Shown piece by piece: positions 28,115 through 51,770 of a DNA stretch of 52,354 nucleotides. The notes under the pieces are model-generated. The model was not told the DNA's origin, made no database searches, and saw only the letters and a program-made list of their open reading frames with translations. The stretch spans positions 1 through 52,354 of IMG/VR virus record IMGVR_UViG_3300032322_001410. One strand, given 5' to 3'. The DNA comes from a virus. Lineage: Duplodnaviria > Caudoviricetes. The translations under genes were made by a program, and so were the position numbers. How positions within the stretch are numbered: the stretch's first letter is position 1; the number at the start of each line of letters is the position of its first letter.

Positions 28115-28122
28115 ATTATTTC

Positions 28123-31857: not shown

Positions 31858-31877
31858 GTTAGTCTCCGTAATTATAA

Positions 31878-34984: not shown

Positions 34985-35395
34985 TTAACCTACCTCAGTC
35001 CTACCGTTTCCGATATCTTTGGAGTATATGGAACGCATGTTTCTATAGTCTGGGTCGGCCTCTTTTTGGTCATATAGTTCTAAAGCCACATTTCTACAGG
35101 TATTGGTAAACCAACGTTCTACTATCTCTTTATCTGTATCTGAATCTTTAAATTTATAGCCTGCCCTAATTAGGTTGATAACAAATTTTTCGTTCCAATC
35201 TAATTCAAACGCACCATCATTAATATTGTCTGGATTTATTTCAATACTAATTATGCCTACGTAAGGTTCGCCCGCTAATGTGGCTTTTTCTTTTTCAGAG
35301 AGTATCTTTTCTTTTTTTGGTTTAGGTTCTTTTTTTGGTTCTACTTTAACTGGCTCTTCAGGCTTCGCAAAGTATTTTTTTATCTTGTTTAACAT
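34985..35395 (-). CDS. conserved hypothetical phage protein
   Basis: GAGGAG SD before MLNKIK; KE.AT..GEPY, G.FELDWN..F..L..AGY. Confidence 0.7.
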   Translation of the reverse strand: MLNKIKKYFAKPEEPVKVEPKKEPKPKKEKILSEKEKATLAGEPYVGIISIEINPDNINDGAFELDWNEKFVINLIRAGYKFKDSDTDKEIVERWFTNTCRNVALELYDQKEADPDYRNMRSIYSKDIGNGRTEVG

Positions 35396-36410
35396 TTTTA
35401 CTCTCCTCATATAATGCAAAGCTTGCTAGATTTTTAGCCTTGCTTTCGCACATGATATCAAATTTATTATTAAAACTCAATGCCCATTCATTACATGCCT
35501 TGTTCCAATAATAATCGCTGTGCGCTCGTAATTTTTGTTTATTAAAACCTTGTTCCTTTAATGTAACCATGCAGGGCATAGCACTAGAGTCATGTCCAAT
35601 CAGTATATCTTCTCTAGATACGGAGTAGTGCATAGCAGGACGGACACCGCGCCAGCTATCAAGAACCCGTGCAACTCGGGAATCATCAGGAGTGATATAT
35701 TCCCCCTCACGAATCCAATGATGATGAATGTCAAGTACAATAGGTAGCAGATCGCCAAGGCTGAGACAATCATCCAATCCATAACTCATCTCCTCGTTTT
35801 CGATAGTGATACCATTCCTTGCTTCAGGGCTAAGTCTTTTGTAGGCTTCTCTGATACCTTGTGGACCTTGCCTACCGCTGATGTGGACATTGATTTTAAT
35901 GTCCTGAAACGCAGAGCCGTAGCCCATCCATCTTGCCATATCCGCATGATACTCAAACTCCTCTATAGATTTATTTACTACCTCAGGACGATCACTTGCA
36001 AGAACTACAAATTGATCAGGGTGAAAACTAACACGTACATCATTACTACGGGCAGTCTCGCCTAGTGGCTTGAACCAGTGTTCAAGTTGTTTTTGAATAT
36101 CACTAGATTTCCAAAAGCCCTGCCAATCTTCATGTGTATAGAAACTTAGCATGTCACTGGTAATACGCAACATACGCAATTCGTTGGGTAGTGTGGCTAC
36201 CTTTTTGATAAGCGCATGAGTATTCATGATATTGCGTTTAGCAACATCAATGATTTTTTCTTCCGCTACTCTACGACTTTGACGATTAGCCCATGCCATA
36301 GTGGTACCGCCAGTGTTCAGTCCTTCAACGCTAGCAATCTCACCCTTTTTGTTAATCTCTGCAAACTTGCAAGCAAAGCCGATGCGATTTACATTTTGGT
36401 TAAATGTCAT
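35358..36410 (-). CDS. uvsE: UV damage endonuclease (UvdE/UvsE)
   Basis: RIGFAC, R.SFHP.QF.VL, N.H, IEN.E, VLDIHHH, HYS, AHSD, DIMCE.K.K. Confidence 0.92.
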   Translation of the reverse strand: MTFNQNVNRIGFACKFAEINKKGEIASVEGLNTGGTTMAWANRQSRRVAEEKIIDVAKRNIMNTHALIKKVATLPNELRMLRITSDMLSFYTHEDWQGFWKSSDIQKQLEHWFKPLGETARSNDVRVSFHPDQFVVLASDRPEVVNKSIEEFEYHADMARWMGYGSAFQDIKINVHISGRQGPQGIREAYKRLSPEARNGITIENEEMSYGLDDCLSLGDLLPIVLDIHHHWIREGEYITPDDSRVARVLDSWRGVRPAMHYSVSREDILIGHDSSAMPCMVTLKEQGFNKQKLRAHSDYYWNKACNEWALSFNNKFDIMCESKAKNLASFALYEESKNVKQDKKILCEA

Positions 36411-36625
36411 AGATATTTTAATTTTAAGTAAGTTTCAAATTTAGAATCTTCAGTTGTTAACATCCAGATACCTTGTGTTCTTTTTACTTCCCAACCTTCG
36501 CCACCAAATCTATTATGAAAATAATATCTTCTTGGTGATATGTTTTTTCGACACCACCAATCTATAATACTTAAGTCAGAATAAGGCACAGATATCATTG
36601 TACAATATTTTTTAATTATTGTCAA
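36407..36625 (-). CDS. hypothetical protein
   Basis: ORF overlapping both neighbours. Confidence 0.6.
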   Translation of the reverse strand: MTIIKKYCTMISVPYSDLSIIDWWCRKNISPRRYYFHNRFGGEGWEVKRTQGIWMLTTEDSKFETYLKLKYL

Positions 36626-37439
36626 TTTTTAGCAAATCCTCTAGAGAATATAGCTTATTCATGTATTTGCTAGGAGTATCCAAAACACTAGATTCCATAT
36701 CGCCCGGCCTTCTAGAACCATATTTTGTTTCAAATTTAACATTGTTTGTTTCTTTGAAAAGATTTACCATTTCTAATACAGTATGACCTTTACCATGACC
36801 CAAATGTTCGATAGAATTACTTGGCTTTTCTACTGCATACATTAAAGCAGTGCATATTTCGTTTACATGAACATAATCACGCACACAAGTGCCATCCTTT
36901 GTGTTGTAGTCATCACCAAAAATAGTAAAGTAACCAATATTGGGTGCTAACTTTAAATTGTAAAACAAACCATCAGGATTAGTGGGTTCAACAACATTAC
37001 CTCCTATGATATTAAAAAATCTGAAAATAGTATAATCAATGTTATTGCTCTTACAATGTGCTAGCACACAATCTTCTGCTGCACGTTTACTTAAACCATA
37101 TGGGCTAACCATACCCACTGCTGCACCAGTACTAGCAAAAATAAAGTTTTTTGTTTTAATTCCATTCAAAACATTTACAGTACCGTTAATGTTTGTTGTA
37201 TAATAATTACTAGGTTTATATACACTTTCACTTACATTTACTAACGCTGCAAGATGAATGACCGCATCAAATTCTATATCGATACCAATTGGCATTCTAA
37301 TATCTACATTCACAAAGTTTTTAGTTTCTATTTTTGGCTCTTGAAAATCCAAACAATACACTTCATGTTTATGTTTTTCTAACATAACCTGTAAGTGTGA
37401 GCCAATATATCCTGAACTACCTGTAATTAAAATTTTCAT
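36612..37439 (-). CDS. NAD-dependent NDP-sugar epimerase/dehydratase (GalE-like)
   Basis: GSSGYIG, HLAA, ASTG, YGLSK, DGTCVRDYVHV, RRPGD. Confidence 0.9.
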   Translation of the reverse strand: MKILITGSSGYIGSHLQVMLEKHKHEVYCLDFQEPKIETKNFVNVDIRMPIGIDIEFDAVIHLAALVNVSESVYKPSNYYTTNINGTVNVLNGIKTKNFIFASTGAAVGMVSPYGLSKRAAEDCVLAHCKSNNIDYTIFRFFNIIGGNVVEPTNPDGLFYNLKLAPNIGYFTIFGDDYNTKDGTCVRDYVHVNEICTALMYAVEKPSNSIEHLGHGKGHTVLEMVNLFKETNNVKFETKYGSRRPGDMESSVLDTPSKYMNKLYSLEDLLKIDNN

Positions 37440-38779
37440 TATAATCCTTCAAAAAGTACGAAAGGTTCTTCTTCCTCAATAGGAGTAAAAAGCGAATCTT
37501 TGCTTAAATATGTATTGGTATCCGTATATGTACAAGTATATTTGTGTTTATTTGCTAACACACTTTTTGTATCATCTATACAAATAACTTTTCTATTTAA
37601 ATTTGTTATATAGTCACTGTATTTTACTGTCTCACTTTGTAAAATTTTTGCCGTATTAGATTGGCTCTGTTTAGGTCTGAACCATTCAAAACATAAATTC
37701 CATTTATCAAAGACTTTTGATTCTTGTAAGTTGTTATAATGTAGAGAGCCTTTATTATACCATTCAGTCGCAGTAACAAACATATTGTATGCACCTAATA
37801 CATCTTGTGACATATCTTTTTTGTTTGTCTTAAAAAAGAACTGCCCTTCAAAATTATCTGTCCAGCGTTGGTTTTCTAAGCAGAAAGTCGGTAATTGAAT
37901 GAGTTGTTCATAAAAAGCCATACCATAACTTTCTACTGTGCTTGGATTAAATGCAACACGACAACTGGTGATGAAATCTACTTTCTCTTGTCCAATAATA
38001 CTAATTTTAATTTGATAGTCAACACCCAACTCTTTTAATCGTGCTTCAAATTTTTTAGCACCATTCGCATTGGTCATTACACGTGCCGGAAGTTTAGTTT
38101 CTTCAATGAGTTTTAAATATAGTTCTGGGTTCTTACCTTCTTCCCAACGACCAATAAACAACACACCTTCACGATCTTTATGATATTCATTTAGTAAAGC
38201 AGGTTCAGTAATGGGAATAGGCAAATGCCATGCATTCTCATCAAACTTATTACAATTAAACTCGCTTTGTGTGCCGATAGTGATGCCACCCATCTTTAAT
38301 TGCAGTCGCATCATTTCATTAACACTATTAAGAAATGGATTGTGTAATGTATTGGGGAATATTTGACTTTCTAAGTGAGTATATGCAATAACCTGTATTA
38401 CATCTTCAAGGCCCATCGTGCTTGCAACTTGTACAGTCTCATAGGTATTACAAATTAATGCATCATACAAATTATCTTCTAATGCCCTAATAATCGAATT
38501 ACGAAAGTTTGCCATTCGTTCATAGCAATAGCTATCGCCATACATAAAAATAGCACTGTGGTTTGTGTAAACATACGATTCTTCGGGATAGATAATATTG
38601 GTGTTTAGTGATTTTACAAATTCATTGTCTTGCGGTTTTTTGTCAGTAATAATATCAACTTTAACACCGTTTTCTTCCATTAGTCTAATAAAGCTTTTTG
38701 TGAACTGCCCGATACCACCATGTGGCACTAATGTTTGATAACTTACTAAAAATCCAATTCGTTTTTTATATATTTTCAT
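37439..38779 (-). CDS. GT-B glycosyltransferase (GT4-like)
   Basis: PHGGIG, FIGRWEEGKN, PSTVESYGMAFYE. Confidence 0.85.
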   Translation of the reverse strand: MKIYKKRIGFLVSYQTLVPHGGIGQFTKSFIRLMEENGVKVDIITDKKPQDNEFVKSLNTNIIYPEESYVYTNHSAIFMYGDSYCYERMANFRNSIIRALEDNLYDALICNTYETVQVASTMGLEDVIQVIAYTHLESQIFPNTLHNPFLNSVNEMMRLQLKMGGITIGTQSEFNCNKFDENAWHLPIPITEPALLNEYHKDREGVLFIGRWEEGKNPELYLKLIEETKLPARVMTNANGAKKFEARLKELGVDYQIKISIIGQEKVDFITSCRVAFNPSTVESYGMAFYEQLIQLPTFCLENQRWTDNFEGQFFFKTNKKDMSQDVLGAYNMFVTATEWYNKGSLHYNNLQESKVFDKWNLCFEWFRPKQSQSNTAKILQSETVKYSDYITNLNRKVICIDDTKSVLANKHKYTCTYTDTNTYLSKDSLFTPIEEEEPFVLFEGL

Positions 38780-39033
38780 TGCTTCATTAATTCAAAAATA
38801 TGTGATTCGGTTGTGCGCCAAATAATAAAAACAGGATCCATATAATCACCCACTCTCGAAATGCCCCGGTAAGCATATTTTAACCAAATGCGTTTATCCG
38901 TCAATTGACACTTATGTGGTAACCATGCAAAAGTCCATTCCCAATGTGCGTTATTAATTAGGTATTTGTCAAACTCTGCCATTTTAATACCTTTAGGAGG
39001 AAGATAACTCATGCCCCACATTATGTTCCCCAT
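38776..39033 (-). CDS. hypothetical protein
   Basis: W...FAWLP.KC......IWL..AY motif. Confidence 0.6.
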   Translation of the reverse strand: MGNIMWGMSYLPPKGIKMAEFDKYLINNAHWEWTFAWLPHKCQLTDKRIWLKYAYRGISRVGDYMDPVFIIWRTTESHIFELMKQ

Positions 39034-39869
39034 TCGTTTTTAAAAAGTGGTACTTGTAATCTATCACTATAACGCAAACCATGTTTCATTGCAAGTTCTG
39101 CGACAGTTCTGTTGTTTAATGCATACACATTTTCAACACCACCAACGGGCATTAAGTATACATGACCACCAAACCCTTCTTTCTTATATAGTTCAATCAC
39201 TTCCAATGCTTCATCAACATCTTCTTTTGTTGCAACTACAAATTTTAGATATGTATGACCCAAATCTTCATACTCTCTAACAATATCTGGGCGAATAGCT
39301 TCTTCTCTAAGTTCACCACTAACACTTAGTTTTGGGCTGACACTGAATGTTAGATTATGATAACCCTTTTTTTGTGTCCATTTATACAAAAATAACTTAA
39401 AGTCTGGTTGAAGTTTTTGTGTTCCATTAGTTTCAAATGTAATGTCATTACATTTTTTCATTCTAGGGTTATCTAACAATTCAGGATACGCTCGTTGCCA
39501 GCCTAATAATGGTTCGCCTCCAGTAATAACTAAATGCTCATTGCGCCATTCTTTAAATGGTAATGAACCGATGATGGCTTCAACTATTACATCAATATCA
39601 TACATTGCACTAAGGTCTTTGAATGCAGGATGCCAACTTGCATAACTATCGCATCCTGTAGTTACAAGCGGTAATTCATGATAGAATTTGAATTCACTAA
39701 CTCGTTTTGCTATGTCATCAGCTTCAGTGCTACAGTTACCTTTAGGCATACCGAAGCCACTACACGTGAAATTGCAACCATAAGTACGAAGGAAGATACT
39801 AGACACCCCCATGAATCTTCCCTCACCTTGTATACTATAAAATAATTCTGCTACTTTAATTTTACTCAT
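39021..39869 (-). CDS. queE: 7-carboxy-7-deazaguanine synthase (radical SAM)
   Basis: E.FYSIQGEG..G..SIFLR..GCN..C, CDS, ITGGEPL, ETNGT, VSPK, LMP, RLQ. Confidence 0.9.
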   Translation of the reverse strand: MSKIKVAELFYSIQGEGRFMGVSSIFLRTYGCNFTCSGFGMPKGNCSTEADDIAKRVSEFKFYHELPLVTTGCDSYASWHPAFKDLSAMYDIDVIVEAIIGSLPFKEWRNEHLVITGGEPLLGWQRAYPELLDNPRMKKCNDITFETNGTQKLQPDFKLFLYKWTQKKGYHNLTFSVSPKLSVSGELREEAIRPDIVREYEDLGHTYLKFVVATKEDVDEALEVIELYKKEGFGGHVYLMPVGGVENVYALNNRTVAELAMKHGLRYSDRLQVPLFKNEWGT

Positions 39870-40140
39870 AGATTTTTGACCAAATTTTAAGTTTGTCTTT
39901 TTTGTTTTGTTTGTACGTATCAAGTCTAGATTGTTCCAATATACCTTGCTCTAGTAAAATATCAACTAATGCTAATACATCTCCGATTTCCATTTCTAGC
40001 ATTGCTCTATGAGTATGTTGCATATCTGATTTATAATGTGCCGTTTCTAAACCAAATCTACGAATCTTACTCACTTCGACAATTATTTCTGCGCATTCTT
40101 CTTGCAGTATGCCCAATGCTTCTTCTGTTTTTGAATTCAT
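39862..40140 (-). CDS. MazG-like nucleotide pyrophosphohydrolase
   Basis: QEECAE...SK..RFG...LE.EIGDV. Confidence 0.8.
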   Translation of the reverse strand: MNSKTEEALGILQEECAEIIVEVSKIRRFGLETAHYKSDMQHTHRAMLEMEIGDVLALVDILLEQGILEQSRLDTYKQNKKDKLKIWSKIYE

Positions 40141-40355: not shown

Positions 40356-40601
40356 TTAATTTTCCAGTAAAGTTTTATTTTGAATATCCCAAAAAACTTC
40401 AATAGCTGTTTTGGCATGTTCTATTGAAATATATTGACCTAAATGTTTTTCGTCATTTAGAGTAAATGTATATTGTCCAGTATATACAATGCCAAAGAAT
40501 ACTTCTTGTAAGGCAATTTTACTAGCCATGCCTACAATTTTTCCTGTAACAGCATCATAATAATAGTATCTATCAGATACACTTTTCCAATCATATTTCA
40601 T
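40356..40601 (-). CDS. hypothetical protein
   Basis: ATGA overlap with the queD stop. Confidence 0.65.
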   Translation of the reverse strand: MKYDWKSVSDRYYYYDAVTGKIVGMASKIALQEVFFGIVYTGQYTFTLNDEKHLGQYISIEHAKTAIEVFWDIQNKTLLEN

Positions 40602-41113
40602 GTAAATAAGTCCTCATTCCATTCTCTGTGACCTTCTCTGAAAGCCATATTGCTTTGTGTTTCACGTACCTCTACACGATAGCACCAAAGTCTTTCTGCT
40701 TCGCCTGGCCCCCACATATCAGGAATATACACTCCATTGACATATTTGTAAAGCATATCGGCAAGACCCTCACAACCTAATCGTGGTAAAATGGTTAGTT
40801 TAGCCATTTTCTTTTCTTGCAATAATTTAAATGTTTCTAGTTCTGGGTCATCTTGTGCTACCAATAATGTATGATCAAATTGATCTTCTAGTATCTTCTT
40901 TAATTCTTTTAGACCACCATAATCAGCAGCCCAATTACGAACATCTAGATTATCAGTACCAAAATAAAACTTCATTGAAAACGAATATCCATGAATTAAG
41001 TTACAGTGACTATCGGCACGCCACTGACGATACGCACATGGAAAACTATCATGATATTCTTTGGTACTAGTATATTTGTAAACTCTAGGTGGGTAAATCT
41101 CTTTTAAGTACAT
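40598..41113 (-). CDS. queD: 6-carboxytetrahydropterin synthase (QueD/PTPS family)
   Basis: HCNLIHGY, W..DYG.LK, FDH, GCE..A, V.V.ET; AAGGAG SD before ATG 41113. Confidence 0.85.
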   Translation of the reverse strand: MYLKEIYPPRVYKYTSTKEYHDSFPCAYRQWRADSHCNLIHGYSFSMKFYFGTDNLDVRNWAADYGGLKELKKILEDQFDHTLLVAQDDPELETFKLLQEKKMAKLTILPRLGCEGLADMLYKYVNGVYIPDMWGPGEAERLWCYRVEVRETQSNMAFREGHREWNEDLFT

Positions 41114-41180
41114 TTTTGTCTCCTTTATTAGCAAGACATGCAGAATTTAATATAGCGGGATGAATGTCACAGGCCGCTTG
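41114..41180 (-). ncRNA. candidate preQ1-I-like riboswitch / cis-regulatory RNA in the queD leader
   Basis: P1 AGCGG/CCGCU, 15-nt loop ending CAUC, AU-rich tail, loop GACAU complementary to downstream AUGUC, SD-sequestering hairpin. Confidence 0.5.
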
Positions 41181-41376
41181 TGCTTACTCTTTTGTTCCAA
41201 TTATTTATTGCATCGTCACCTGAAGAACCTAAAATAGATGCACTGCATCCCCCAGTTTCTTCAGCACAGTTTACTGACCATATAGTTTTTTGTTTATCGA
41301 TTGGATAAACTGTTTCATGCCATAAATCTTGTTGATTTAAATCATGTCCACAAAAAGGACAAGGTTTTAATTTCAT
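41167..41376 (-). CDS. Lar-like (restriction alleviation family) zinc ribbon protein
   Basis: LKPCPFCG...V.C.....C......AI..WN.R. Confidence 0.75.
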   Translation of the reverse strand: MKLKPCPFCGHDLNQQDLWHETVYPIDKQKTIWSVNCAEETGGCSASILGSSGDDAINNWNKRVSTSGL

Positions 41377-41846
41377 TGATTCAATACATTAATTATTTGG
41401 GCATCAGCTACACGTTTGCGTAAACTGCTAGAACTAAAGCTGTGGTCACGACCATTAAATATTATAGCAATGTTGCGACTCCAACAAGCTTCGTCACCAG
41501 TGAATCTTTTATCTTCATACTCAACACCTAGTATACGCACATCTAATGGCAAAATCAATAGTAAATCAATCAAATCTTGTTCAGTTTGATATACAACAAC
41601 TTCATCAACATATCGACATGCCGCTAGTTGTATTTGCCTTTCTACAATACTTTGAACAGGTTTATTTTTGGTATCTGGTCTATCAATTGTTGGGTCAGTT
41701 TGTAATCCCGCAATTAAATAATCACAATGATTTTTAGCTTCAGCAAGCATAGCAACATGTCCCGCATGAAATAAATCAAAGGTACTAAACGTGATACCTA
41801 TTTTTAATCCTTTAGCCTTTAGGTCTTTAACTTTATTGAATATCAT
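41373..41846 (-). CDS. cytidylyltransferase (TagD-like HxGH nucleotidyltransferase)
   Basis: TFDLFHAGH, YVDEV, G.EY, R...FSSS.LR. Confidence 0.88.
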   Translation of the reverse strand: MIFNKVKDLKAKGLKIGITFSTFDLFHAGHVAMLAEAKNHCDYLIAGLQTDPTIDRPDTKNKPVQSIVERQIQLAACRYVDEVVVYQTEQDLIDLLLILPLDVRILGVEYEDKRFTGDEACWSRNIAIIFNGRDHSFSSSSLRKRVADAQIINVLNQ

Positions 41847-41991
41847 TTTTATCTTTTTTATCTTTTTTAAGTGGGCAATCACATTCATATCTACCTTGAT
41901 TGCAATTACCAGTACATCCAGGTATATTCATTGTAACGTATATTCCTAAGTATACAATAACTAAGCCAAGAATTATTAATACTATAGTCAT
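41833..41991 (-). CDS. 52-aa membrane-anchored Cys-rich peptide (below cutoff)
   Basis: ATG overlaps folE stop; MTIVLIILGLVIVYLGIYVTMNIPGCTGNCNQGRYECDCP... Confidence 0.6.
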   Translation of the reverse strand: MTIVLIILGLVIVYLGIYVTMNIPGCTGNCNQGRYECDCPLKKDKKDKNDIQ

Positions 41992-42665
41992 TTCCCCATC
42001 CTTGCAATACTTAGAAATTCATTTCTTGCTGCTGGGTCTGTTTTAAATCCACCACCTAGTCGAACTGTCACAGTAGAACTACCTGTATCCTCTACACCAC
42101 GACTCTTAACACAATAATGTTGTGCGTCAATCATAACCGCAACATCTTCTGTTTCGAGAATGTAACATAGTGTGTGAAAAATTTGTTCAGTTAATCGTTC
42201 TTGTATCTGTGGGCGTTTGCTGAAATATTCAACAATACGATTAATCTTACTAAGACCTAATACCTTTTGCTTAGGTACATATGCAACTGTGGCAAGTCCG
42301 TCAATGATAACAAAGTGATGTTCGCAATTACTTTGTACACTTACATTGCGGTCGCACACCATTTCATTGTAATGCATTTTGTTATCAACTGTTGTACATT
42401 TAGGGAATGCCTCATAATCAAGTCCCCAAAAGATTTCATTGACATACATTTTTGCTACACGTTTTGGTGTTTCTGCTAGACTATCATCATCTAAATCAAG
42501 TCCTAGAACTTGCATGATATATTTGAAATGTTTTTCAATCTCATTGATCTTGTCTTTTCTATCCATGTTAATATTGGTAGTAGGAGTTTCAACTCCCATT
42601 TTGACAAGATATTCATGAACCTTTTTACCTAGTTCAGGGTCTGTTTTTGTTTTATTGTAACTCAT
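41988..42665 (-). CDS. folE: GTP cyclohydrolase I
   Basis: TPKRVAK, CEHH, GLSKINR, RPQIQERLT, H.C...RGV. Confidence 0.96.
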   Translation of the reverse strand: MSYNKTKTDPELGKKVHEYLVKMGVETPTTNINMDRKDKINEIEKHFKYIMQVLGLDLDDDSLAETPKRVAKMYVNEIFWGLDYEAFPKCTTVDNKMHYNEMVCDRNVSVQSNCEHHFVIIDGLATVAYVPKQKVLGLSKINRIVEYFSKRPQIQERLTEQIFHTLCYILETEDVAVMIDAQHYCVKSRGVEDTGSSTVTVRLGGGFKTDPAARNEFLSIARMGK

Positions 42666-42933: not shown

Positions 42934-44133
42934 TTAGTATTTGCCTTCTTTTGTGTGTTTTCTATAATCCGTACTCATACGTAAATACTGTTCACCTTGC
43001 CCAGTAATCACATCACAAATACGATCAATTGTTTTATCATTATAATCACTTATTTTACCCATATTGATATGTGGGTGCTTTAGTAATTTAAACAACTTAT
43101 TTAATGCATCATGAATTGACCAAGGAATGTAAAGCCTATCGCTGTCATTAGCAAAAGTTTCAGGAAAGCTGCGATAAGCAGGATAAAGCACATTGCAGCC
43201 CAAAGTGTCTGCCTCTGATACAGTATTACTGACCCAGTCTTGTAAAGCACAGTTAAACAATACCCTAGTATCATTAAGTAAATTATAGTAATCATTTTTT
43301 TCTAAATCTTCATATACAACTAATTTGCCTTCGTCTACTAGACGCTTTGTTCTTTCCATATAACTACTATTGTTTGATTTTAATTTGCTACCACTGAATA
43401 GAGCAAATTCAATTTCATCTTGTTCGTAGCCTTCCCAATATGCCATCTTACTAAGACGATGAAATTCTTCAATCAAGTCCATATAGAAGTCAGGTTGTTT
43501 TTCTTGATCCCAACGTGCTGCGAAACCTACACGTAGTTTACGTTGATGAAAAGGTTTTAATTCTTTTACTCTACTACGAACCTCATCTTTACCAAATGCT
43601 AAACCAGAAATATTATAGATAGGAGCAGTCCATCCAGCAATACGCATATGAGCAACCATTTCCTCGTTTGAGGCGAGAACTCCGGTAACAAACTCATTGA
43701 CCATGCTTTCGTAATATCCCATCCACTTCGCCATGCCCCATACATGAACAAAGTCATCAGGATCAATGGACTGAGCAAGACACCTAACAAAAACACGGGG
43801 ACGCTTATCAGCAGGGACTTGGTTAAATATGTAAGGTAAGCTTTCGATACCGGGTTGAAACATGTCCTCAAAGTAGATAACATCCTCATTACTAATTTCT
43901 CCGTTTTTATGACAACGTACAAGATTCATCATTTGGCTCATACCAAAGTAACTACGACCATGTGCATCTAGTACTTGTCCTGTAACTATATCTTGGCTAG
44001 TCGTAAGTGTTTCACCATGCATTAAACAATAAGTAAAATTTCTTTTATCGAATACACGTTCATTCCATTCTGTTAATTGTAATGTATACCGTGCCTTGTA
44101 TGGTTCAAGGCCCATATAATACAGTTTACGCAT
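42934..44133 (-). CDS. GT-B glycosyltransferase
   Basis: FAARWDQEKQP, LFNCALQDWVSNTVSEA..LGC....P....FPE. Confidence 0.8.
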   Translation of the reverse strand: MRKLYYMGLEPYKARYTLQLTEWNERVFDKRNFTYCLMHGETLTTSQDIVTGQVLDAHGRSYFGMSQMMNLVRCHKNGEISNEDVIYFEDMFQPGIESLPYIFNQVPADKRPRVFVRCLAQSIDPDDFVHVWGMAKWMGYYESMVNEFVTGVLASNEEMVAHMRIAGWTAPIYNISGLAFGKDEVRSRVKELKPFHQRKLRVGFAARWDQEKQPDFYMDLIEEFHRLSKMAYWEGYEQDEIEFALFSGSKLKSNNSSYMERTKRLVDEGKLVVYEDLEKNDYYNLLNDTRVLFNCALQDWVSNTVSEADTLGCNVLYPAYRSFPETFANDSDRLYIPWSIHDALNKLFKLLKHPHINMGKISDYNDKTIDRICDVITGQGEQYLRMSTDYRKHTKEGKY

Positions 44134-44515
44134 CCTCTTCCCTTTTTGTAATTTCCAAATCACAATCAATGATCATTTCACAATCACTAAAAAGCCAACC
44201 ATGTTCTTCAAGGTCTAACCAACTATTACCTTCCTCAAAGAATTCTTCTAGCCAAGCTTGAGCTTCCTCGTCTACTTCATCATACTCACGTTCTTCCCAA
44301 CAACCATCGTCGGTTTCCACTAATTCAGTTTCATAACCGCAGTTATAAATATCTACACCTGCTTCAATATCAGGAGGATTATCGTCCTCAGTGTATACAA
44401 TAAATTCTCCCCAACGCCAACCAGTTTCAACAATAAGAGTATTATCGTCTTTTGTAATATGTTGACGTTCGATAATAGATTTTTTCCAAGTGGGTTTAAC
44501 TGTCCAAGTCGCCAT
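44126..44515 (-). CDS. acidic hypothetical protein
   Basis: ETGWRWG motif; operon packing. Confidence 0.75.
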   Translation of the reverse strand: MATWTVKPTWKKSIIERQHITKDDNTLIVETGWRWGEFIVYTEDDNPPDIEAGVDIYNCGYETELVETDDGCWEEREYDEVDEEAQAWLEEFFEEGNSWLDLEEHGWLFSDCEMIIDCDLEITKREEDA

Positions 44516-44734: not shown

Positions 44735-45169
44735 TTAAATTTCAAGTTGTTGATAAGGTTTAGTTAAATTATAATGAATTTCGCATCCGTTTTCATCATC
44801 TTCGGACACATTGATTATTACATTTCGGTTTGGATACCGATCTGCAATTCTTAAGTACAAGTCATCGGCAATCATCTCGCATGATTTGTAGTCCAATGAC
44901 AGACAATTTTGTTCCCCTGAATACAATGCTTCCAAGTATCGCTTGAACTGGATGAACTCGATATCACGGTCATTGTGGTATACGTCGATTGACACCCTGA
45001 AGTGAAAAATATGGCGATGGGGATAACCAAGAAAGCTAACATCACTGAGTTTAGGTTCTTCCAATGCTGCAGGATATTTGTGTATACCTTCTTTCTGAAA
45101 AGTAACCCATATCTGTCTTTTTGCCTCATGTTTAATTCTTTCAATTTTTTCTCGTTCACTTTGGATCAT
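44735..45169 (-). CDS. second QueD/PTPS-like T-fold protein
   Basis: F..EG.H, HRH.FHF.V.I, D.EF..FK, SCE.IA, V.V.ED.ENG layout matches the PTPS fold. Confidence 0.6.
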   Translation of the reverse strand: MIQSEREKIERIKHEAKRQIWVTFQKEGIHKYPAALEEPKLSDVSFLGYPHRHIFHFRVSIDVYHNDRDIEFIQFKRYLEALYSGEQNCLSLDYKSCEMIADDLYLRIADRYPNRNVIINVSEDDENGCEIHYNLTKPYQQLEI

Positions 45170-45387: not shown

Positions 45388-46950
45388 TTAATCAAATGAA
45401 ACAAATTGGTCAATTGTAGAATCAATAGTAGAACTTTTTTCTTTTTTAGGTTTTTGTTTTTTTGTGTTTGATATTAGATTTTGCTGAGTTTCTTCTTCAA
45501 CTAGTTTGTTATACATTGTTCTTGCATTGACCGTTTTTTTACCACTAAACCCTTGACTACCTGCCTGCATTTGTTCCCAAAGTTTGCTATACTTTTCTAC
45601 AACATCTAAACTTTCTTGTTTTGTTTTTTGAGCAAAAACTTCATTAATTATTTCTTTAAATTTTTTTTCAATAAATTTATGTCTTATCATTGCGGGTATA
45701 ATATCGTTATCATACCTTCTATTTGCTTCTTGCACCGCTGCTATATGTTGATAAACATTATGTGCTTGTATAAGTGTGTAACTTAGTGTGTCCCAACTTG
45801 TTTTTGTTTCTTTTCCATGTTGCCCAATAAAACCAACACCCCTGTAACATACGTCTTTAATCAATAGTTTATCAACAATAGGACTATTTGTAAATACATT
45901 ATGGACTTTATCGTCCAAAACAGCATCAACAAATTTCCTATTATCTATTGCATATTTTTTATCTTCTGCCGTTTTAGACATTCTATAAGACCATTTACTA
46001 TCGTGTTCAATACTTGTTTCACAATATGCAAGACCTTTTGCAGCACTGAAAAACGGACTGGCGCAATCAAATGTAATTTGTAATTTTGAGTTATGATATT
46101 TTCTAATGGCTTTTTGTATGTCTGTAAACAATACAGCATATTCCAAAATACTTACGCCCAAACAGTGAATCAAATCATGCTTGCCTTCTTGTAATAGTCC
46201 ATCATAGATAATATCAATTAATCTAATAAGTGTTAAATGTATATCAATCTTTGTTTGACCACCAAAAGCCCAACCGTTGAAATGTTTCTCAGGGTATAAA
46301 TTTGGATCACAATATTTTTTCATTTCTTCATACCATTCATAACTTTCAGTATGATTTGTTCCTTGTAGAACATTTAGAAATTTACATTTACCACTACGGT
46401 TATTAATAAAATATTCGTTATTAATATGTGTAGCAGTTATAGCATCTTGAATATTGTGAATGTTATGCAATGGTATAGCATCTGTGTTTAAGAAACTTTG
46501 ACTAGGTACATCTAAACACATACCATAATCCATGTATGTGTCCATCCATTGTAGTACAGCCTTACGTTTCTCTAACGCTTTAGGACAATTAGGATCTTTC
46601 CAATCAGCTGGCCATTGACCTTTTAAAATCTGAAATCCACCACTATCACCTAATAAGAAAGTGCCACTCTCTCTTTCATAAACAATACTCTCACTATTGC
46701 CTTGCTTTTTAGGATCAAGTTCAGCATGTCCTGCGCTATATAATGCCCACTTATATGGAAACAATGCCTTTTGACTGTTTAGAAAATTTAATGATTCTAA
46801 GTCAGAAATACCTTGAGGTATACGATCACTAGGAAAATAGTTTTCACCCTTACGTTGCTTACCCAATCCAGTAATATAAAACGTACTGAGTGCAGGTAAG
46901 AATAGTGCCCAATCGGGATTTTGTTTTTCTGTTAAATTATCTTTTTCCAT
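45388..46950 (-). CDS. TGT-superfamily guanine transglycosylase (DpdA-like)
   Basis: DSGGFQ, LDVP, VLQG, AFGG, H.LG, FDCASP TGT barrel motifs; sits with folE/queD/queE. Confidence 0.8.
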   Translation of the reverse strand: MEKDNLTEKQNPDWALFLPALSTFYITGLGKQRKGENYFPSDRIPQGISDLESLNFLNSQKALFPYKWALYSAGHAELDPKKQGNSESIVYERESGTFLLGDSGGFQILKGQWPADWKDPNCPKALEKRKAVLQWMDTYMDYGMCLDVPSQSFLNTDAIPLHNIHNIQDAITATHINNEYFINNRSGKCKFLNVLQGTNHTESYEWYEEMKKYCDPNLYPEKHFNGWAFGGQTKIDIHLTLIRLIDIIYDGLLQEGKHDLIHCLGVSILEYAVLFTDIQKAIRKYHNSKLQITFDCASPFFSAAKGLAYCETSIEHDSKWSYRMSKTAEDKKYAIDNRKFVDAVLDDKVHNVFTNSPIVDKLLIKDVCYRGVGFIGQHGKETKTSWDTLSYTLIQAHNVYQHIAAVQEANRRYDNDIIPAMIRHKFIEKKFKEIINEVFAQKTKQESLDVVEKYSKLWEQMQAGSQGFSGKKTVNARTMYNKLVEEETQQNLISNTKKQKPKKEKSSTIDSTIDQFVSFD

Positions 46951-47342
46951 TAGATTGCTTGCATCGCCACAGGTTCATCACTATGTGATTCTTTTTTAAT
47001 CAACGATTTAATCATTTCAAGTTGATTTTGTTTCTCTTTGATTTGATTTACTAAATCATTGACAGCATGGTTAGTTTTAGCAAGTTCTTCTAACTCCATT
47101 TCTTCATGCATTTTTTTATTTGCCCATTCAATTATTTTTTTAGTGTTAGAATCTAAATCTACTTGAACAACATTATTTGGTATACTGTGCCATGCCATTC
47201 CATCACTAACTGCGAAACCTTGCGCCATAGAATCCCACTTAATCATACCTGCTCCGGAGAAAGTATTATTAATTTGGGGCATATGTTGATTTGTATTAGA
47301 CACAGTGATATGACTGCTACCTGAATATATGTTTTTAATCAT
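46950..47342 (-). CDS. hypothetical protein
   Basis: 130-aa ORF coupled to both neighbours. Confidence 0.7.
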   Translation of the reverse strand: MIKNIYSGSSHITVSNTNQHMPQINNTFSGAGMIKWDSMAQGFAVSDGMAWHSIPNNVVQVDLDSNTKKIIEWANKKMHEEMELEELAKTNHAVNDLVNQIKEKQNQLEMIKSLIKKESHSDEPVAMQAI

Positions 47343-48073
47343 TTTTGTTGTGCTGGAATCAAATAAGTATAGACTGCTAATCCTGTGTCAACTACAATTT
47401 CACAGGCACCCTGATTACTAATTCTCATTTTCTTGTCACCTACCAAACTAAGGATGTTACTGATTTCTTTAACTGGCCACTTCCATCCATGTGTAAGTAC
47501 ATTATCAACATTGCTTTGAAAAACAAAACTACCATTATGAGTAGAAGGGTCACCAAAATAAACTTTTAACTCGTTATTCTCAGTAATCATTCTAAACTTA
47601 TCTTCTTCACTGTTAGCTGATGCTTGCTTTTTCAAACGCATAATGCCATTTACCGCTGGTTCAAATTCTAACTGATATGTTGGTTTATGTAATTTAAAGT
47701 TTTTAACCTTTTCTTGAATAATCGATTCTGACATTAAACGATATTCATTTTTAAAGTCTTTAGTTGCTGTGTGAAAAGAAATGCTTTCTGGAACTAATTT
47801 TCCATTCTCGTCTGTTTTCTTGTTAACCATAATGATAGACGCATCATCGTATTCCTCAAAACTTAAAATAGTTTTTAGTTTTCCTAAATTAGGCATACCG
47901 AATGTACCTATAAATTCAGGATGAGGAGTTTTGAATACACCAGTAATAACCAAAGTTTTGTCAGCAGAAACCGCATGAATTTCTGTTACTGTGTCTGAAC
48001 CTAATATTTTTATTTGCTCAATCGTTTCAATTACTGAAACGTTTTTAATAATGTCATTTAAAATGTTTTTCAT
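47339..48073 (-). CDS. putative DNA polymerase sliding clamp
   Basis: 244 aa, alternating beta/alpha pattern ending Y.YLIP, directly downstream of polB; fold call is inferred. Confidence 0.55.
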   Translation of the reverse strand: MKNILNDIIKNVSVIETIEQIKILGSDTVTEIHAVSADKTLVITGVFKTPHPEFIGTFGMPNLGKLKTILSFEEYDDASIIMVNKKTDENGKLVPESISFHTATKDFKNEYRLMSESIIQEKVKNFKLHKPTYQLEFEPAVNGIMRLKKQASANSEEDKFRMITENNELKVYFGDPSTHNGSFVFQSNVDNVLTHGWKWPVKEISNILSLVGDKKMRISNQGACEIVVDTGLAVYTYLIPAQQK

Positions 48074-48151
48074 GTTTATCCTTTAAGTTTGAATATTTAA
48101 ATTGCGTCATTACGTATAATAATGGAATTTATTGCAAAAAGCAACATTATT

Positions 48152-50860
48152 TTACCCGAAGGTAATAAAAGATTCAAATGTTGACCTTATATTAGTACTA
48201 TCTCGTATGTTCCAATCTAGCACCCCCAATAAATTGTCTATCTTCTCATCTACAAGTGTTGTTTCCATTGCTTCATCATCAAATGGAAGTTCAACAAACC
48301 ATTTAGGTAGTCTTAACTCGTCTGTCGGATACGCAATACTTGTAAAGTTTAATGGATTACTTCTAAGTTTACATACAACAATTTTCATACCATCAACAAT
48401 TTTCTGACTGTAATTGTCACCATGTACTTTGCGTAGATAGTTCCAATTCAATGCGGCTCTAACATGACCAGGCATATTTGCTTTACCTGTTGCGCTAGTA
48501 GCTTCTTTTTCACCATACATAGTTAAATTGTTTACTGATTTAGGACTACCCTTTGTCCAACTATCTTGTTCACTTAGTTTAGTTTTAAAAGTTTTTACTA
48601 CTTCAACAATTTCATTACGGTCTTTACCTGCCAAAACCATTTCTAAAACTTGCATCAGAAAATCTTGAACTTGTTTAGGAGTATCAGCACGTTTTAGGTC
48701 TAGACCCATTGCTTTAATCTTACCCATGCTGCCATTAGTATCTAGACGTTTTCCTTCTTTGTCATAGATATTAATAGCATAACGTTTTTTAGTAATGAAT
48801 AATGTTCTGTCACCGATCAATTCACGTCCAGCTTTAATAATCGAACCATTCTTTCTCGGACAATGAAATGCACGTTCCATAAATGATGGGAAGCTATCAT
48901 TAATTTGATCTGCGATATTATCGTAAAGTGTTATGCATAGTTCTTTACTCCAGTTAATTTCACCTTTCGCAATATCATCTTTGAGTACAGGTAAGGCACT
49001 GAAATAACAACTATCAGTATCTCCATATACGATTGCAGTGCCATCATGGTTGTATTCACCTGCAATACATTCATTTATTTGGCTCATCATATGTTTTGTA
49101 ATCTGACGACCACTTAATGTAACGCTTTGACCAATACGTTTATCATAAAATCTACAATGCTCATTTAATAGTGCGCCATATGCAGAGTTGAGTAGAATCT
49201 TTCGGACTAATTGACGTTTATCCCAATACTCTTTGTCATAGTCGGTTGTTGATTCTTTTAGTTTCTTCTGCATATCTTTACGATCACTATACCAACGTGT
49301 GAGTAGTCCGGGAATCACGCCTTCTTGCTCGTAAGTAAAGATAGTACCATTAGCACTTAGTATGTATGGATTGTTACTATCAAAAACAAATTTCCATATT
49401 TCTGCCGCACTCATTTCTATGCTACGACCATCTTCATAATCAATGGTTAGCATTGTACCACGTTCTTGGTTCATGATTGCTGCGTATTCTAAACTACCAA
49501 ACAATCCTTCCCACAAGATACTACCAGTAACGCCTTCATCTTCGTTCTTTCTGCGTTTCTTTTCTTTTGCCAAACGCATACTTTTTTCATACATGTATTG
49601 ATTAGTTAAGGTTTGTCTAACTTGTCCGACAATGGTTTCTGGCGCCATGTTAAGAGCGCGGATCGCTGACGGGTAGAGACTGTTGATATCGACTGCCCCA
49701 ACGTATTCGTGAATGCCCCTTTTGGGCGTAGCAACATAGGCACCTGCTGCTTGCTGTTCGTCATCTGTTTCCTTTCGTAATTTATCAGGTACAACAACAC
49801 CTCGTTCATGTGCTTCATTAAAAATTGCCATTTCAATCATTGCCACCGAACCCATAACAGTCGGAAGCAACACAGTATTTTCATGTGCAAGTGCGTTAGC
49901 TAAATCTAAAAATTTTAATTTATTATGAATCTTAACCAACAGCATTGTATCTTGTCGATTGTATTCTAAGAATTTTTTAAAATCTTTATTATAAAGTTGG
50001 TCTAATGTGCCTTCATATTGAGTTTTATTTTCACCAACTTCCATTTCACCAATGAAATCTAGCTTGTAACTATGTCTGGATTCGTAGTTATACTTTTTAT
50101 ATAACTGCAAATAGTCCATATGTATTCGCCCAATTAAATCATATGTGGTTTCTTCTTTACCAAATCGTTCATATGTACGTGCTTTAGGCAATTGACCGAG
50201 CAGACAAAATTTACGTGTATCATCTTTGCTCATTACTCTAGTGACACGATTTACCATATATGGAATATCATATCCTTCTGAGTTCCAACCAGTCAATACA
50301 TCTGCATCTTCAATCAACTGAAAAAATGTTTCGAACATTTCTACTTCTGTTTTGAACGACAAACAATTTTCAAACTCATTTGTTATTTCTTGTGCAGTTT
50401 CAACACTCATATGTTTCGGCTTGATACACAATGTAATCAATTGGTCTAGCCAATCAAGATACATTGATATTGCTGTTACCATATTGAATGGATCACTAGT
50501 TGGACTAAACCCTTTGTCAGGATCAAAGTCAACTTCAATATCAAAGAAACATGTATGTAACTTTGGAGCTTCTACATTAAGATAATTTTCACTCAAACAA
50601 CGAAAAACTACATTAACATCACTTTCAAATAATTTTTTATTTGAATGTATTCGTCGCTCTTTTTCAAACTCGCTACGTTTACGTGTACTGAACCTACTAA
50701 CAGGATCGCCATACATACTACGATGCTTACCTTTTAGGTCACTATAGTAAAATACATAATTGGCAGGATATTCACGATAGGCTCGTTTGCCCTCAGGCGT
50801 TCGTTCTACGACATAGATTTTATCACCATCTCTGTCGTGCAATGCATCAACGTATGACAT
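48152..50860 (-). CDS. family B DNA polymerase
   Basis: Exonuclease FDIE, WN...YD, YN..D; polymerase DINSLYPS, K..LNS.YG, YGDTDS, KKRY. Confidence 0.97.
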   Translation of the reverse strand: MSYVDALHDRDGDKIYVVERTPEGKRAYREYPANYVFYYSDLKGKHRSMYGDPVSRFSTRKRSEFEKERRIHSNKKLFESDVNVVFRCLSENYLNVEAPKLHTCFFDIEVDFDPDKGFSPTSDPFNMVTAISMYLDWLDQLITLCIKPKHMSVETAQEITNEFENCLSFKTEVEMFETFFQLIEDADVLTGWNSEGYDIPYMVNRVTRVMSKDDTRKFCLLGQLPKARTYERFGKEETTYDLIGRIHMDYLQLYKKYNYESRHSYKLDFIGEMEVGENKTQYEGTLDQLYNKDFKKFLEYNRQDTMLLVKIHNKLKFLDLANALAHENTVLLPTVMGSVAMIEMAIFNEAHERGVVVPDKLRKETDDEQQAAGAYVATPKRGIHEYVGAVDINSLYPSAIRALNMAPETIVGQVRQTLTNQYMYEKSMRLAKEKKRRKNEDEGVTGSILWEGLFGSLEYAAIMNQERGTMLTIDYEDGRSIEMSAAEIWKFVFDSNNPYILSANGTIFTYEQEGVIPGLLTRWYSDRKDMQKKLKESTTDYDKEYWDKRQLVRKILLNSAYGALLNEHCRFYDKRIGQSVTLSGRQITKHMMSQINECIAGEYNHDGTAIVYGDTDSCYFSALPVLKDDIAKGEINWSKELCITLYDNIADQINDSFPSFMERAFHCPRKNGSIIKAGRELIGDRTLFITKKRYAINIYDKEGKRLDTNGSMGKIKAMGLDLKRADTPKQVQDFLMQVLEMVLAGKDRNEIVEVVKTFKTKLSEQDSWTKGSPKSVNNLTMYGEKEATSATGKANMPGHVRAALNWNYLRKVHGDNYSQKIVDGMKIVVCKLRSNPLNFTSIAYPTDELRLPKWFVELPFDDEAMETTLVDEKIDNLLGVLDWNIRDSTNIRSTFESFITFG

Positions 50861-51143: not shown

Positions 51144-51770
51144 TTAATTATACACATCACTTGTAGTAAATGCAAGTTTTTGTTTATCCAATACTAGCTT
51201 TTTAACTAGTTTTGGTAATCCTGGGTTAACATGTAAAGCATGTGGCATCAACTCATGTCTGATATAATTGCGAATGTATTTGGTATCCGTATTAGATTGG
51301 TCTTCGATCCAACCACATTCGTGTCGTTCTGCCCAATCGATTAAATCATGTTTAGTTGTAGTAAGAAATGGGCGTAATACATTGTTTCGTTGTGCAGGGA
51401 TAACTTTTGGATTACCATGCATACATGACCAAATATATGTTTCAACACAATCATCTAAATGATGCGCAGTAACAACTGGATCTTTAAACGATTCTAAAAA
51501 TTTATATCGCTCATCTCTCCAAAACTCTTGACTACTCACACCATCGGGATAATCTTTAGTAAGATGACCAACTACTAATGGCAATTCTCTAGCACTAGCA
51601 AAGTCTTGTACAAACCGATGTGCCAATTCACTTGTTTTTGTACCATGATGAAAGAATGCCAATGTGACATCGTGTTTTCTATGCAAGAAATCGGCAATGG
51701 CTACACTATCCACGCCACCGCTAAATGCGATAACTAATTTTTTGGGTAGTGGGAAGAGTAATTTGATCAT
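51144..51770 (-). CDS. tilS: tRNA(Ile)-lysidine synthase, catalytic domain only
   Basis: SGGVDS PP-loop, R..RY.F, TAHHLDD..ET, RPFL, D.SN....Y.RN.IRH. Confidence 0.88.
   Translation of the reverse strand: MIKLLFPLPKKLVIAFSGGVDSVAIADFLHRKHDVTLAFFHHGTKTSELAHRFVQDFASARELPLVVGHLTKDYPDGVSSQEFWRDERYKFLESFKDPVVTAHHLDDCVETYIWSCMHGNPKVIPAQRNNVLRPFLTTTKHDLIDWAERHECGWIEDQSNTDTKYIRNYIRHELMPHALHVNPGLPKLVKKLVLDKQKLAFTTSDVYN
51147..51175 (-). promoter_or_regulatory. sigma70-type promoter TTGCAT-N17-TATAAT upstream of dsbA-like/polB
   Basis: 17-nt spacer, located in the 3' end of tilS. Confidence 0.55.

Follow-up and report, generated by a model that had tools for sequence, protein, structure and literature searches.

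The stretch of viral DNA described here, 52,354 nucleotides long (IMG/VR record IMGVR_UViG_3300032322_001410; Duplodnaviria, Caudoviricetes) and referred to below as the window, carries on its minus strand genes for a family-B DNA polymerase (polB, 48152..50860), for a 244-amino-acid (aa) protein with a predicted sliding-clamp fold (47339..48073) and for a 520-aa protein distantly related to guanine transglycosylases (45388..46950). Further downstream on the same strand lie genes for making 7-deazaguanine bases and a gene for a glycosyltransferase (GT; 37439..38779). The subject of this report is the short hydrophobic peptide with which the polymerase ends, and copies of which are found at or near the ends of the transglycosylase and of the GT. 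The likeness suggests that enzymes modifying the phage DNA are tethered to the clamp and act at the replication fork. The contig, AT-rich at a GC of 0.32-0.42, represents part of a jumbo phage genome. Six contigs, up to 300,542 bases long, encode a protein identical to the 244-aa clamp, and the closest cultured relatives of the window genes are jumbo phages, namely the PA5oct group, Sinorhizobium phage Phosso, Vibrio phage 2.275.O and Rak2-like phages. The clamp gene is two genes upstream of the transglycosylase gene, with a gene for a 130-aa protein in between. The successive start and stop codons of the three overlap, which suggests that they are expressed jointly.

The polymerase (902 aa) is of the T4/RB69 gp43 type. 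It matches Pfam DNA_pol_B (8.2e-43), DNA_pol_B_exo1 (3.6e-21) and phrog_262 (2.8e-197), its best sequence matches in the PDB are the RB69 and T4 polymerases (E 1.2e-62), and it is 26.6% identical to T4 gp43 over 733 columns, at near-equal length. The C-terminus reads ...IRSTFESFITFG. Its final STFESFITFG (48155..48184, minus strand), the presumed clamp-interaction peptide, had been pointed out in an earlier note on this DNA and is confirmed by translation of the open reading frame (ORF). Relatives were collected as a sample of 83 loci from viral contigs, labelled L001 (which is PA5oct), L002 and so on. The polB tail is nearly invariant in these loci, where 30 distinct versions give the clade consensus STFDDLFSFG. 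T4 gp43 ends in ...ASLDFLFG. The gp43 tail contains a PIP-like motif that binds the clamp gp45, in a pocket that is mainly hydrophobic and has two basic residues opposite the acidic groups of the peptide (PDB 1b8h; PMC3012046, in excerpt). The polB tail of the clade is of the same kind as that of T4 gp43, and by homology it would also bind a clamp.

The 244-aa protein had been put forward in the earlier note as a clamp candidate. By sequence it matches phrog_12062, a family of unknown function, and no Pfam or NCBIfam family, and a hidden Markov model (HMM) search of the PDB returned spurious matches only (E at least 0.13). The proposed fold is borne out by structure prediction. An AlphaFold2 (AF2) model built on a 45-row alignment has a mean local confidence (pLDDT) of 91.0 and a predicted template-modelling (TM) score of 0.87; the model made without an alignment is unusable (pLDDT 35.8). 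In a Foldseek search of the PDB with the former, the top match is the PCNA chain 6e49_C over the full length (E 2.9e-11, probability 1.00, TM scores 0.67/0.65). At E <= 0.001 the matches number at least 500; those listed, 49 in all, are PCNA chains or complexes, with TM scores of 0.62-0.71. Against the viral library BFVD the matches are giant-virus PCNAs and T4-like phage sliding clamps, the latter including that of Aeromonas phage 65.2 (E 5.8e-10, TM 0.70/0.73). In two relatives the annotators had named the homologue PCNA or sliding clamp. As modelled, the protein is of the sliding-clamp fold, and its size is that usual for the two-domain subunits of trimeric clamps.

The 520-aa protein has no match in Pfam, PHROGs or NCBIfam, and a six-frame search of the window with Pfam TGT (PF01702) at E up to 10 finds nothing, whereas 14 of 14 control genomes match. 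The family is very large, with at least 7178 proteins at E <= 0.001 among 8000 candidates scored and 819 representatives at 50% clustering. A lead to its identity came from the ESM Atlas, in which a cluster with PF01702 in 17% of its members was found at rank 14 (score 0.93). A profile of 81 family members has nine invariant positions (S72, D102, S103, G105, D147, P149, H262, G265, D295) and aligns by hhalign with E. coli Tgt over 182 columns (91.5% probability, E 8.6e-7), pairing GDSGGFQ with TDSGGFQ, LDxP with FDEC, LNVLQG with FGIIQG and FDxxSPF with MFDCVMPT. The invariant D102, D147 and D295 fall on TDSGGFQ, FDEC and MFDCV, respectively. We take the Tgt members of these pairs, after the Z. 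mobilis and E. coli enzymes, to hold the three functional aspartates, namely the Asp of DSGGFQ, the substrate-binding Asp and the nucleophile. In the window, DSGGFQ occupies residues 102-107 (46630..46647, minus strand) and FDCASPF, with D295, residues 294-300 (46051..46071, minus strand). The match to the "TGT domain" protein of Vibrio phage GR7B is stronger (98.7%, E 2.9e-16), that protein itself scoring 24.1 bits with the Pfam model against a cut-off of 26.3. In the GR7B alignment the downstream HN motif is kept. Among the phage DpdA subfamilies, DpdA3 was considered and rejected. The alignment with phiST gp042 (259 aa, CGPG_00065 type), which we take to be DpdA3 from its position and the description in PMC10516641, reaches 75.9% over 82 columns only, and no Cellulophaga or Campylobacter (DpdA3) phage is among the 39 records found by tblastn with the 520-aa protein at E up to 10. 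Because the profiles of Tgt and of the GR7B protein match, the zinc motif CxCxxC is replaced and the alignment with DpdA3 is weak, the 520-aa protein is therefore filed as a putative member of the TGT/DpdA superfamily that would form a separate, zinc-less lineage outside DpdA3, presumably of DNA guanine transglycosylases. The label TGT-like, used in the earlier note, thus holds at the level of profile-profile comparison only, the standard searches being empty.

The protein ends in ...NTKKQKPKKEKSSTIDSTIDQFVSFD, which comprises a Lys-rich linker and then the tail. The translation agrees with the ending STIDQFVSFD that the earlier note had reported. Three elements can be told apart (all minus strand): a degenerate first motif, RTMYNKLVEE, at residues 477-486 (45493..45522), where short and medium forms of the enzyme have TKFNELFSF-x and TMFDQLF, respectively; the Lys-rich linker at residues 487-511 (45418..45492); and the polymerase-like tail TIDQFVSFD at residues 512-520 (45391..45417). 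The clade motif is [ST]-x-F-[DN]-x-L-F-x-F, of which T-I-D-Q-F-V-S-F-D is the window version. On a nine-position matrix made from the 30 distinct polB tails of the related loci, the window polB tail included, the tail of the 520-aa protein scores 7.2 bits. Of the 157 window ORFs (six frames, at least 60 aa) only polB outscores it, at 23.1, and the next in rank is at -5.4. Random tails of equal composition reach 7.2 bits in 19 of 200,000 cases. The likeness of the tail to that of polB exceeds chance.

In the relatives, the place of the motif varies with the form of the enzyme. The short form (487-495 aa) ends directly in ...GKKTVNALTKFNELFSF-x. The medium form (about 511-530 aa) has the motif (TMFDQLF-x-V) at the same position, followed by a conserved acidic tail, ...IEDSDDAMSEVLGE. 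The long form (about 518-524 aa) shows a weaker version of the first motif, after which come an acidic stretch, a linker and, at the terminus, another motif (KFNELFSFN, ALDALFTFN, VLNNLFTFG). The window enzyme is a long form in which the first motif is degenerate and the Lys-rich linker stands in place of the acidic stretch. The DSDDAM stretch of the IEDSDDAMSEVLGE-type tail is internal in long forms, and that tail is absent from the window. At L005 (7589..9113) the transglycosylase gene appears as two ORFs of 231 and 289 aa, through a frameshift or an assembly error of that contig.

Conservation of the tail, which the earlier note had singled out as a check, is found in the homologues. With the motif defined as [FYLIM]-[DNESGKTAQ]-x-[LMF]-F within the last 45 aa, it is present in 67 of the 73 distinct sequences that the 83 loci and the window provide and in 118 of the 120 top database relatives. 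The background in body windows is 67/716 for the loci and 119/1162 for the database, or about 10% of 45-aa windows. The motif follows a charged linker that cannot be aligned. Among 117 full-length representatives of 50% clusters, which are 28-50% identical, 20 have the pattern Phi-x-x-[LMF]-F within their final 10 aa and 43 within their final 45 aa, the corresponding counts for body windows being 36 of 4994 and 40 of 1063.

The motif of the enzyme also varies with the tail of its own polymerase. In a clade sample of 62 distinct pairs of polB tail and enzyme motif, most have F..LF.F in both proteins. Five pairs have a polB core other than L-F, and in four of these the enzyme shows the same kind of change. 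In the window, polB FESFITF is matched by IDQFVSF in the enzyme. In the near relative L002, LSTFIKF is matched by LDQFISF (polB ends in STLSTFIKFG and the enzyme in TTLDQFISFK). In L017, FDNFFTF goes with FNEFFKF, and in L048, FDDFFSI goes with FDKFFDM. Outside the clade, Vibrio phage 2.275.O has polB ...NNTDLFDW and enzyme ...NNNDLFGW. PA5oct has polB ...AAHFDSLFGW and enzyme ...NSFNSLFDV, the latter followed by 28 mostly acidic residues. In Phosso polB ends in ...TTFNDLFTF and the enzyme in ...IVEGLF. The GR7B TGT-domain protein has a Lys-rich tail without the motif. The pairing across lineages is stronger evidence than that within the clade.

The ending is largely confined to a few proteins. 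The strict terminal pattern was found in 112 of 2925 ORFs from the first 85 records, of which 82 are polB, 20 are the transglycosylase, 9 are short antisense ORFs and one is a 137-aa ORF. When 3719 ORFs from 164 records were clustered, 102 clusters had at least five distinct sequences, and only two proteins had [LMF]F in the last 6 aa of nearly all members, namely the GT (67/67) and polB (66/68, plus 6/6 fragments). The next among real genes are QueD (14/29) and the transglycosylase (20/73 terminal, the others having the motif internally), and one cluster of antisense ORFs has [LMF]F in the last six residues of 18 of 37 members. The 137-aa ORF (L011, 10970..11383, plus strand; end ...EEHFNSLFDIV) is the sole same-strand match to the strict pattern outside polB and the transglycosylase.

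The GT at 37439..38779 (446 aa, minus strand) is GT-B-like, its match to Glycos_transf_1 (3.2e-4) being below the Pfam cut-off. It ends in an acidic stretch and an LF tail, EEEEPFVLFEGL (37442..37477, minus strand), and the translation confirms the C-terminal sequence given in the earlier note. The window GT tail has no score on the polB 9-mer matrix, and the support for it comes from homologues: each of the 80 complete homologues, from as many further loci, closes with an acidic stretch and an LF or FF tail, most commonly GLSLFEGL. In some the tail is near-identical to that of the polymerase (TNVFDDLFEFQ, GFDLFSFT, GESLFSFE). The tentative inclusion of the GT in the earlier note thus has as much backing from conservation as the claim for the 520-aa protein. 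Other candidates were rejected as carriers. The second GT-like protein (42934..44169) ends in ...DYRKHTKEGKY, and its listed complete homologues end alike, without the motif. The FEN/RNase H (33895..34905) and the DNA ligase (26783..28129) have no C-terminal motif in the window; the motif of T4 RNase H is an N-terminal one. QueD ends in ...EWNEDLFT (40601..40624, minus strand), and ...EDLF-x closes 14 of its 29 distinct homologues. This ending of a precursor-synthesis enzyme may be a further weak copy of the tail, or the resemblance may be coincidental.

The genes of the polymerase, clamp and transglycosylase are also linked elsewhere. The order polB, clamp, small ORFs and transglycosylase is found in PA5oct and Vibrio phage 2.275.O, in both cases beside 7-deazaguanine genes, so that with the window it is present in three lineages. 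In PA5oct the order is polB, clamp, a small ORF, transglycosylase, a GT-like gene and a DpdL-like gene, with QueE further on. In Vibrio phage 2.275.O it is polB, clamp, two small ORFs and transglycosylase, then QueF, a YhhQ-like transporter, QueC and FolE. The PA5oct polB (L001, 1..4831) is interrupted by a Hef-like homing endonuclease gene, which gives two annotated polymerase ORFs.

The complex itself was predicted with three copies of the clamp and residues 484-520 of the enzyme, an alignment and copy number of our own, for which the calibration of the tool is only rough. The scores were 0.44, 0.46 and 0.50 (median 0.46), against 0.00, 0.00 and 0.03 for controls, and the verdict of the tool is "weak support". 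The score passes the mark of the tool, as do 58 of 80 solved complexes and 2 of 110 mismatched pairs, and scores of 0.60 or less comprise only 7 of those 80 together with both mismatches. Between runs, at least 50% of contacts recur. The pLDDT of the partner is about 43-55 and that of the clamp chains 90. The pass may partly reflect the memory of the model for solved PCNA-peptide complexes. Because conservation had already raised the prior, the score adds a small increment. The structure prediction of trimer and tail that the earlier note had asked for therefore gave, for the tail of the 520-aa protein, a median well above the best control but in the weak range.

An alternative is that the tail docks on another hub of the replisome, such as the clamp loader, the single-strand-binding (SSB) protein, the helicase-primase or a factory scaffold, in which case the enzymes would be at the fork and not on the ring. 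The tails are conserved and alike in three proteins, yet their binding to the clamp is predicted, with a weak complex score. Many copies of the tail adjoin acidic stretches, as in EEEEPFVLFEGL and the acidic tails of the transglycosylases, and a tail with an acidic stretch recalls the acidic-hydrophobic tips of SSB proteins. In Phosso the gene of the enzyme adjoins primase and helicase genes, not the clamp gene. However, the polymerase is a same-length homologue of gp43, whose tail is an established clamp-binding element (PMC3012046, excerpts), the enzyme gene is linked to the clamp gene in the three lineages, with overlapping start and stop codons, and the complex controls stay at 0.00-0.03 against 0.46. 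We consider another hub unlikely.

The reading we favor is that clamp-tethered modification enzymes act at the replication fork, and we put its probability at about 0.68, clamp binding, the DNA substrate and the inserted base being the parts that we infer. The 520-aa enzyme would most likely swap guanine in DNA for a 7-deazaguanine base, made by the products of the neighbouring FolE, QueD, QueE and DpdL-like genes. The peptide of the polymerase would dock in a hydrophobic pocket of the trimeric clamp, by homology with T4/RB69 gp43, and the motif in the flexible tail of the enzyme would copy that peptide. The transglycosylase could then take a free pocket of a clamp left on, or moving with, the new duplex DNA. 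With such docking the enzyme would stay on phage DNA as it is made, and base exchange would be coupled to replication. The GT at 37439..38779, with the same kind of tail, would be recruited likewise. The earlier note had held that the transglycosylase, and perhaps the GT, ride on the clamp. The clamp fold, the conservation of the tails, their lineage-specific mimicry of the polymerase and the gene order argue for this, although the binding is predicted and the complex score is weak.

A number of observations weigh against clamp tethering. The complex score is in a range in which, according to the tool, wrong results outnumber correct ones unless the pairing was already likely. The window tail is a weak copy (7.2 against 23.1 bits), with I and V where the consensus has F and F. 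In most transglycosylases of the clade the motif is internal, before the conserved acidic tail ...IEDSDDAMSEVLGE (L003 6167-7717, L016, L022 and most loci), and the strict motif is missing from the last 45 aa of 74 of the 117 distant full-length relatives. Two loci are discordant, L003 with LF in polB and FF in the enzyme and L068 with FF in polB and LF in the enzyme. The concordant variants represent about three independent events within the clade, so that relatedness inflates their counts. Sequence comparison by hhalign does not relate the clamp to T4 gp45 (0.3%), and the client pocket of the clamp is for that reason assumed from the fold only. The annotation of PA5oct lists the clamp homologue as a virion "structural protein (ESI-MS/MS)". 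As for the enzyme, Pfam TGT matches 1 of the 81 diverse family members (E 0.0087), PDB searches with two transglycosylase profiles found no TGT, and the superfamily membership is based on one profile-profile match at 91.5% together with the motifs. In the one alignment available, the C-N-C-P-V-C of GR7B faces T-N-S-P-I-V (family consensus P-f-.-S-p-I), so that the zinc motif is replaced. The position of the motif also qualifies the earlier description of it as a C-terminal end: this is true of the window, but most relatives have it internally with an acidic tail after it, and the window form is a minority variant.

Some of these observations would also suit a likeness of tails without a common partner. 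The short hydrophobic-acidic ends might then be due to chance or to local gene conversion, or they might signal for the stability, turnover or localisation of the proteins. The motif is short, it is lacking in the 74 distant relatives, the window copy is degenerate and there are the discordant pairs. Against this, random tails reach the window score in no more than the 19 of 200,000 trials given above, and the motif persists amid a linker that cannot be aligned. It tracks the lineage variant of the polymerase in the Vibrio phage, in PA5oct and in the clade, and of the 102 clusters only polB and the GT have the ending in nearly all members. Likeness without a common partner is in our estimate improbable.

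The surroundings of the transglycosylase gene bear on its substrate. In minus-strand order, the upstream part of the region has a TilS-N-like PP-loop protein, an 86-aa protein, polB, the 244-aa clamp, the 130-aa protein, the 520-aa enzyme, a DUF465 protein and a 144-aa T-fold protein. Further downstream are a GT, FolE, a cytidylyltransferase-like protein, QueD, a MazG-like protein, QueE, the second GT of this order (37439..38779) and a sugar epimerase. FolE, a GTP cyclohydrolase I (41988..42665), matches NF006824 (2.3e-97). The QueD-like 6-carboxytetrahydropterin synthase (40598..41134) matches phrog_2389 (8.3e-37) and, below the cut-off, TIGR03367 (1.4e-8). The QueE-like radical-SAM 7-carboxy-7-deazaguanine (CDG) synthase (39021..39923) matches several NCBIfam QueE models (best 2.3e-15), all below their curated cut-offs. 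The MazG-like nucleoside triphosphate pyrophosphohydrolase (39862..40140) matches phrog_4856 (2.2e-16). The T-fold protein (144 aa, 44735..45169), which matches phrog_17812, is DpdL-like and a candidate CDG decarboxylase; all five genes are on the minus strand. By tblastn it matches Cellulophaga phage phiST at 31750-32076 (E 2e-8), beside the MazG gene. The gene at that place is named DpdL, a candidate CDG decarboxylase, in excerpts of PMC10516641, to which we matched the locus tags by position. The DpdL-like protein has matches in 29 phage records, among them those of PA5oct, Phosso and Acidovorax phage ACP17, and its gene points to 7-deazaguanine or a derivative as the inserted base rather than preQ0. 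In the window QueC was not found, and the PP-loop protein is TilS-N-like. The gene set resembles that of phiST, which excerpts of PMC10516641 link to 7-deazaguanine in DNA. According to the same excerpts, DpdA3 phages replace all G, and the insertion is proposed to be post-replicative. The DNA of PA5oct resists several restriction enzymes in a pattern pointing to modified G, and its QueE and PTPS genes have been noted (PMC12191111, in part).

The order of polB, clamp and enzyme in three lineages, the adjoining 7-deazaguanine precursor genes and the restriction data of PA5oct favor a DNA substrate. The earlier note had likewise argued for DNA and not tRNA. A contrary possibility is that the 520-aa protein is not a DNA base-exchange enzyme at all, being a tRNA TGT or a different or inactive relative (DNA-binding or glycosylase-like) whose tail serves another purpose at the fork. 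No standard profile recognises the protein, its zinc site is missing, and the TilS-N-like PP-loop protein shows that tRNA-related functions are present in the window. Moreover, a test of the DpdA3 and DpdA4 subfamilies in E. coli failed, so that remote subfamilies are unproven (PMC10516641, excerpts). On the other side, all 81 sequences keep the three Asp motifs unchanged and aligned with those of Tgt, the gene is embedded among FolE, QueD, QueE and DpdL-like genes, and PA5oct, with the same gene order, has a resistance pattern suggesting modified G (PMC12191111, in part). We think it very improbable that the protein lacks a base-exchange role on DNA.

A nucleotide-sugar epimerase (36612..37439), the cytidylyltransferase-like protein (41373..41888) and the GT-like protein without a family (42934..44169), all on the minus strand, lie among the deazaguanine genes. 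Such interleaving hints that the base in DNA may be further glycosylated. A wider reading, which we regard as possible but rather doubtful, extends tethering to the clamp so that, in a very large group of jumbo phages, most of them uncultured, the clamp serves as an assembly line for hypermodification of DNA. The zinc-less DpdA-like enzyme and the GT, perhaps also QueD, would copy the clamp peptide, and G would be exchanged, and perhaps decorated, behind the polymerase. The terminal motifs, the internal motifs with an acidic tail and the tandem motifs would then be means of tuning the occupancy of the three pockets against the polymerase. If true, this would explain how a base exchange that is formally post-replicative can be near-complete.

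Tethering to the clamp can be compared with known systems. With T4 and RB69 gp43-gp45 the window shares a homologous polymerase (902 aa against 898-903 aa) whose hydrophobic-aromatic tail ends in F-G as in T4, and a clamp that is a two-domain ring subunit of about 230-245 aa. It differs in that the clamp has no sequence similarity to gp45 and that the peptide is also on two DNA-modifying enzymes; the T4 clamp-binding motifs named in excerpts of PMC3012046 are those of the polymerase and RNase H. The nearest precedent is T4 alpha-glucosyltransferase (alpha-GT), which co-purifies with gp45, as first reported in 2004 (Sommer et al.) and since confirmed (PMC13216743, in part). There too a DNA-modifying enzyme of the phage is physically tied to the sliding clamp, and modification is proposed to go alongside replication. 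The window GT, with its polymerase-like tail, would be a direct analogue. However, the available part of PMC13216743 names no polymerase-like terminal peptide on alpha-GT, the main enzyme of the window is a base-exchange transglycosylase, and the window GT only weakly matches a GT-B profile. The same 2026 study, in that part, finds the T4 glucosylation ratio to be set by expression level, clamp binding not being the main determinant (PMC13216743).

Like the phage DpdA proteins (bDpdA and DpdA1-4), in particular DpdA3 of phiST and Campylobacter phage CP220 (PMC10516641, excerpts), the window enzyme is a remote TGT relative with FolE, QueD, QueE, DpdL-like and MazG neighbours, a polymerase gene close by and no QueC in the vicinity, and it would be expected to insert a 7-deazaguanine base into DNA. 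In contrast, DpdA3 of phiST is half as long (259 against 520 aa) and without a tail, and the phiST polymerase is a Pol III alpha. In the literature, at the level of titles and abstracts of full-text matches, no link of any DpdA to a sliding clamp was found. No publication was found with both DpdA and jumbo phage in title or abstract, and a search for clamp-binding motif, phage and DNA modification found nothing with the first of these. In eukaryotes, a short peptide on a flexible tail, the PIP box, recruits DNA-modifying or repair enzymes such as DNMT1 and UNG2 to PCNA, so that new DNA is processed at once. The logic is the same, but the window motif lacks a conserved Gln, belongs to a virus and would serve an enzyme of base exchange.

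Recruitment of DNA modification to the clamp is known, with T4 alpha-GT and gp45 as the single phage precedent. What is new here is the different chemistry and a DpdA-like lineage missed by standard annotation. Some phages replace every G although 7-deazaguanine insertion follows synthesis, and excerpts of PMC10516641 leave the route to such efficiency open. A clamp-docking peptide on the transglycosylase would be a concrete and directly testable mechanism for it. PA5oct would allow a test at the bench, being a cultured phage that shares the gene order and whose DNA, by its restriction pattern, contains modified G. The tail motif could also mark other clamp clients in jumbo phages by sequence.

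Several other genes of the window deserve mention. The 130-aa protein between clamp and transglycosylase (46950..47342, minus strand) is conserved, with 69 BLAST matches and the same position in related loci. It has no assigned function and no family in Pfam, PHROGs or NCBIfam. Its C-terminal half is coiled-coil-like, and it could act as an adaptor or regulator of the clamp-enzyme pair. The PP-loop protein (51144..51770, minus strand) matches the TilS N-terminal domain above the curated cut-off (TIGR02432, 3.5e-33). It is without the remainder of TilS and is kept immediately upstream of polB in related loci. Inside the modification cluster, a 69-aa zinc-ribbon-like protein (41167..41376, minus strand) weakly matches Lar-like restriction alleviation proteins (phrog_599, 7.9e-7). 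The phage also encodes ClpP (13975..14568), DnaK (Hsp70, 4e-260; 18635..20530), ClpX (20859..22058) and a UvdE UV-endonuclease (35358..36410), all on the minus strand.

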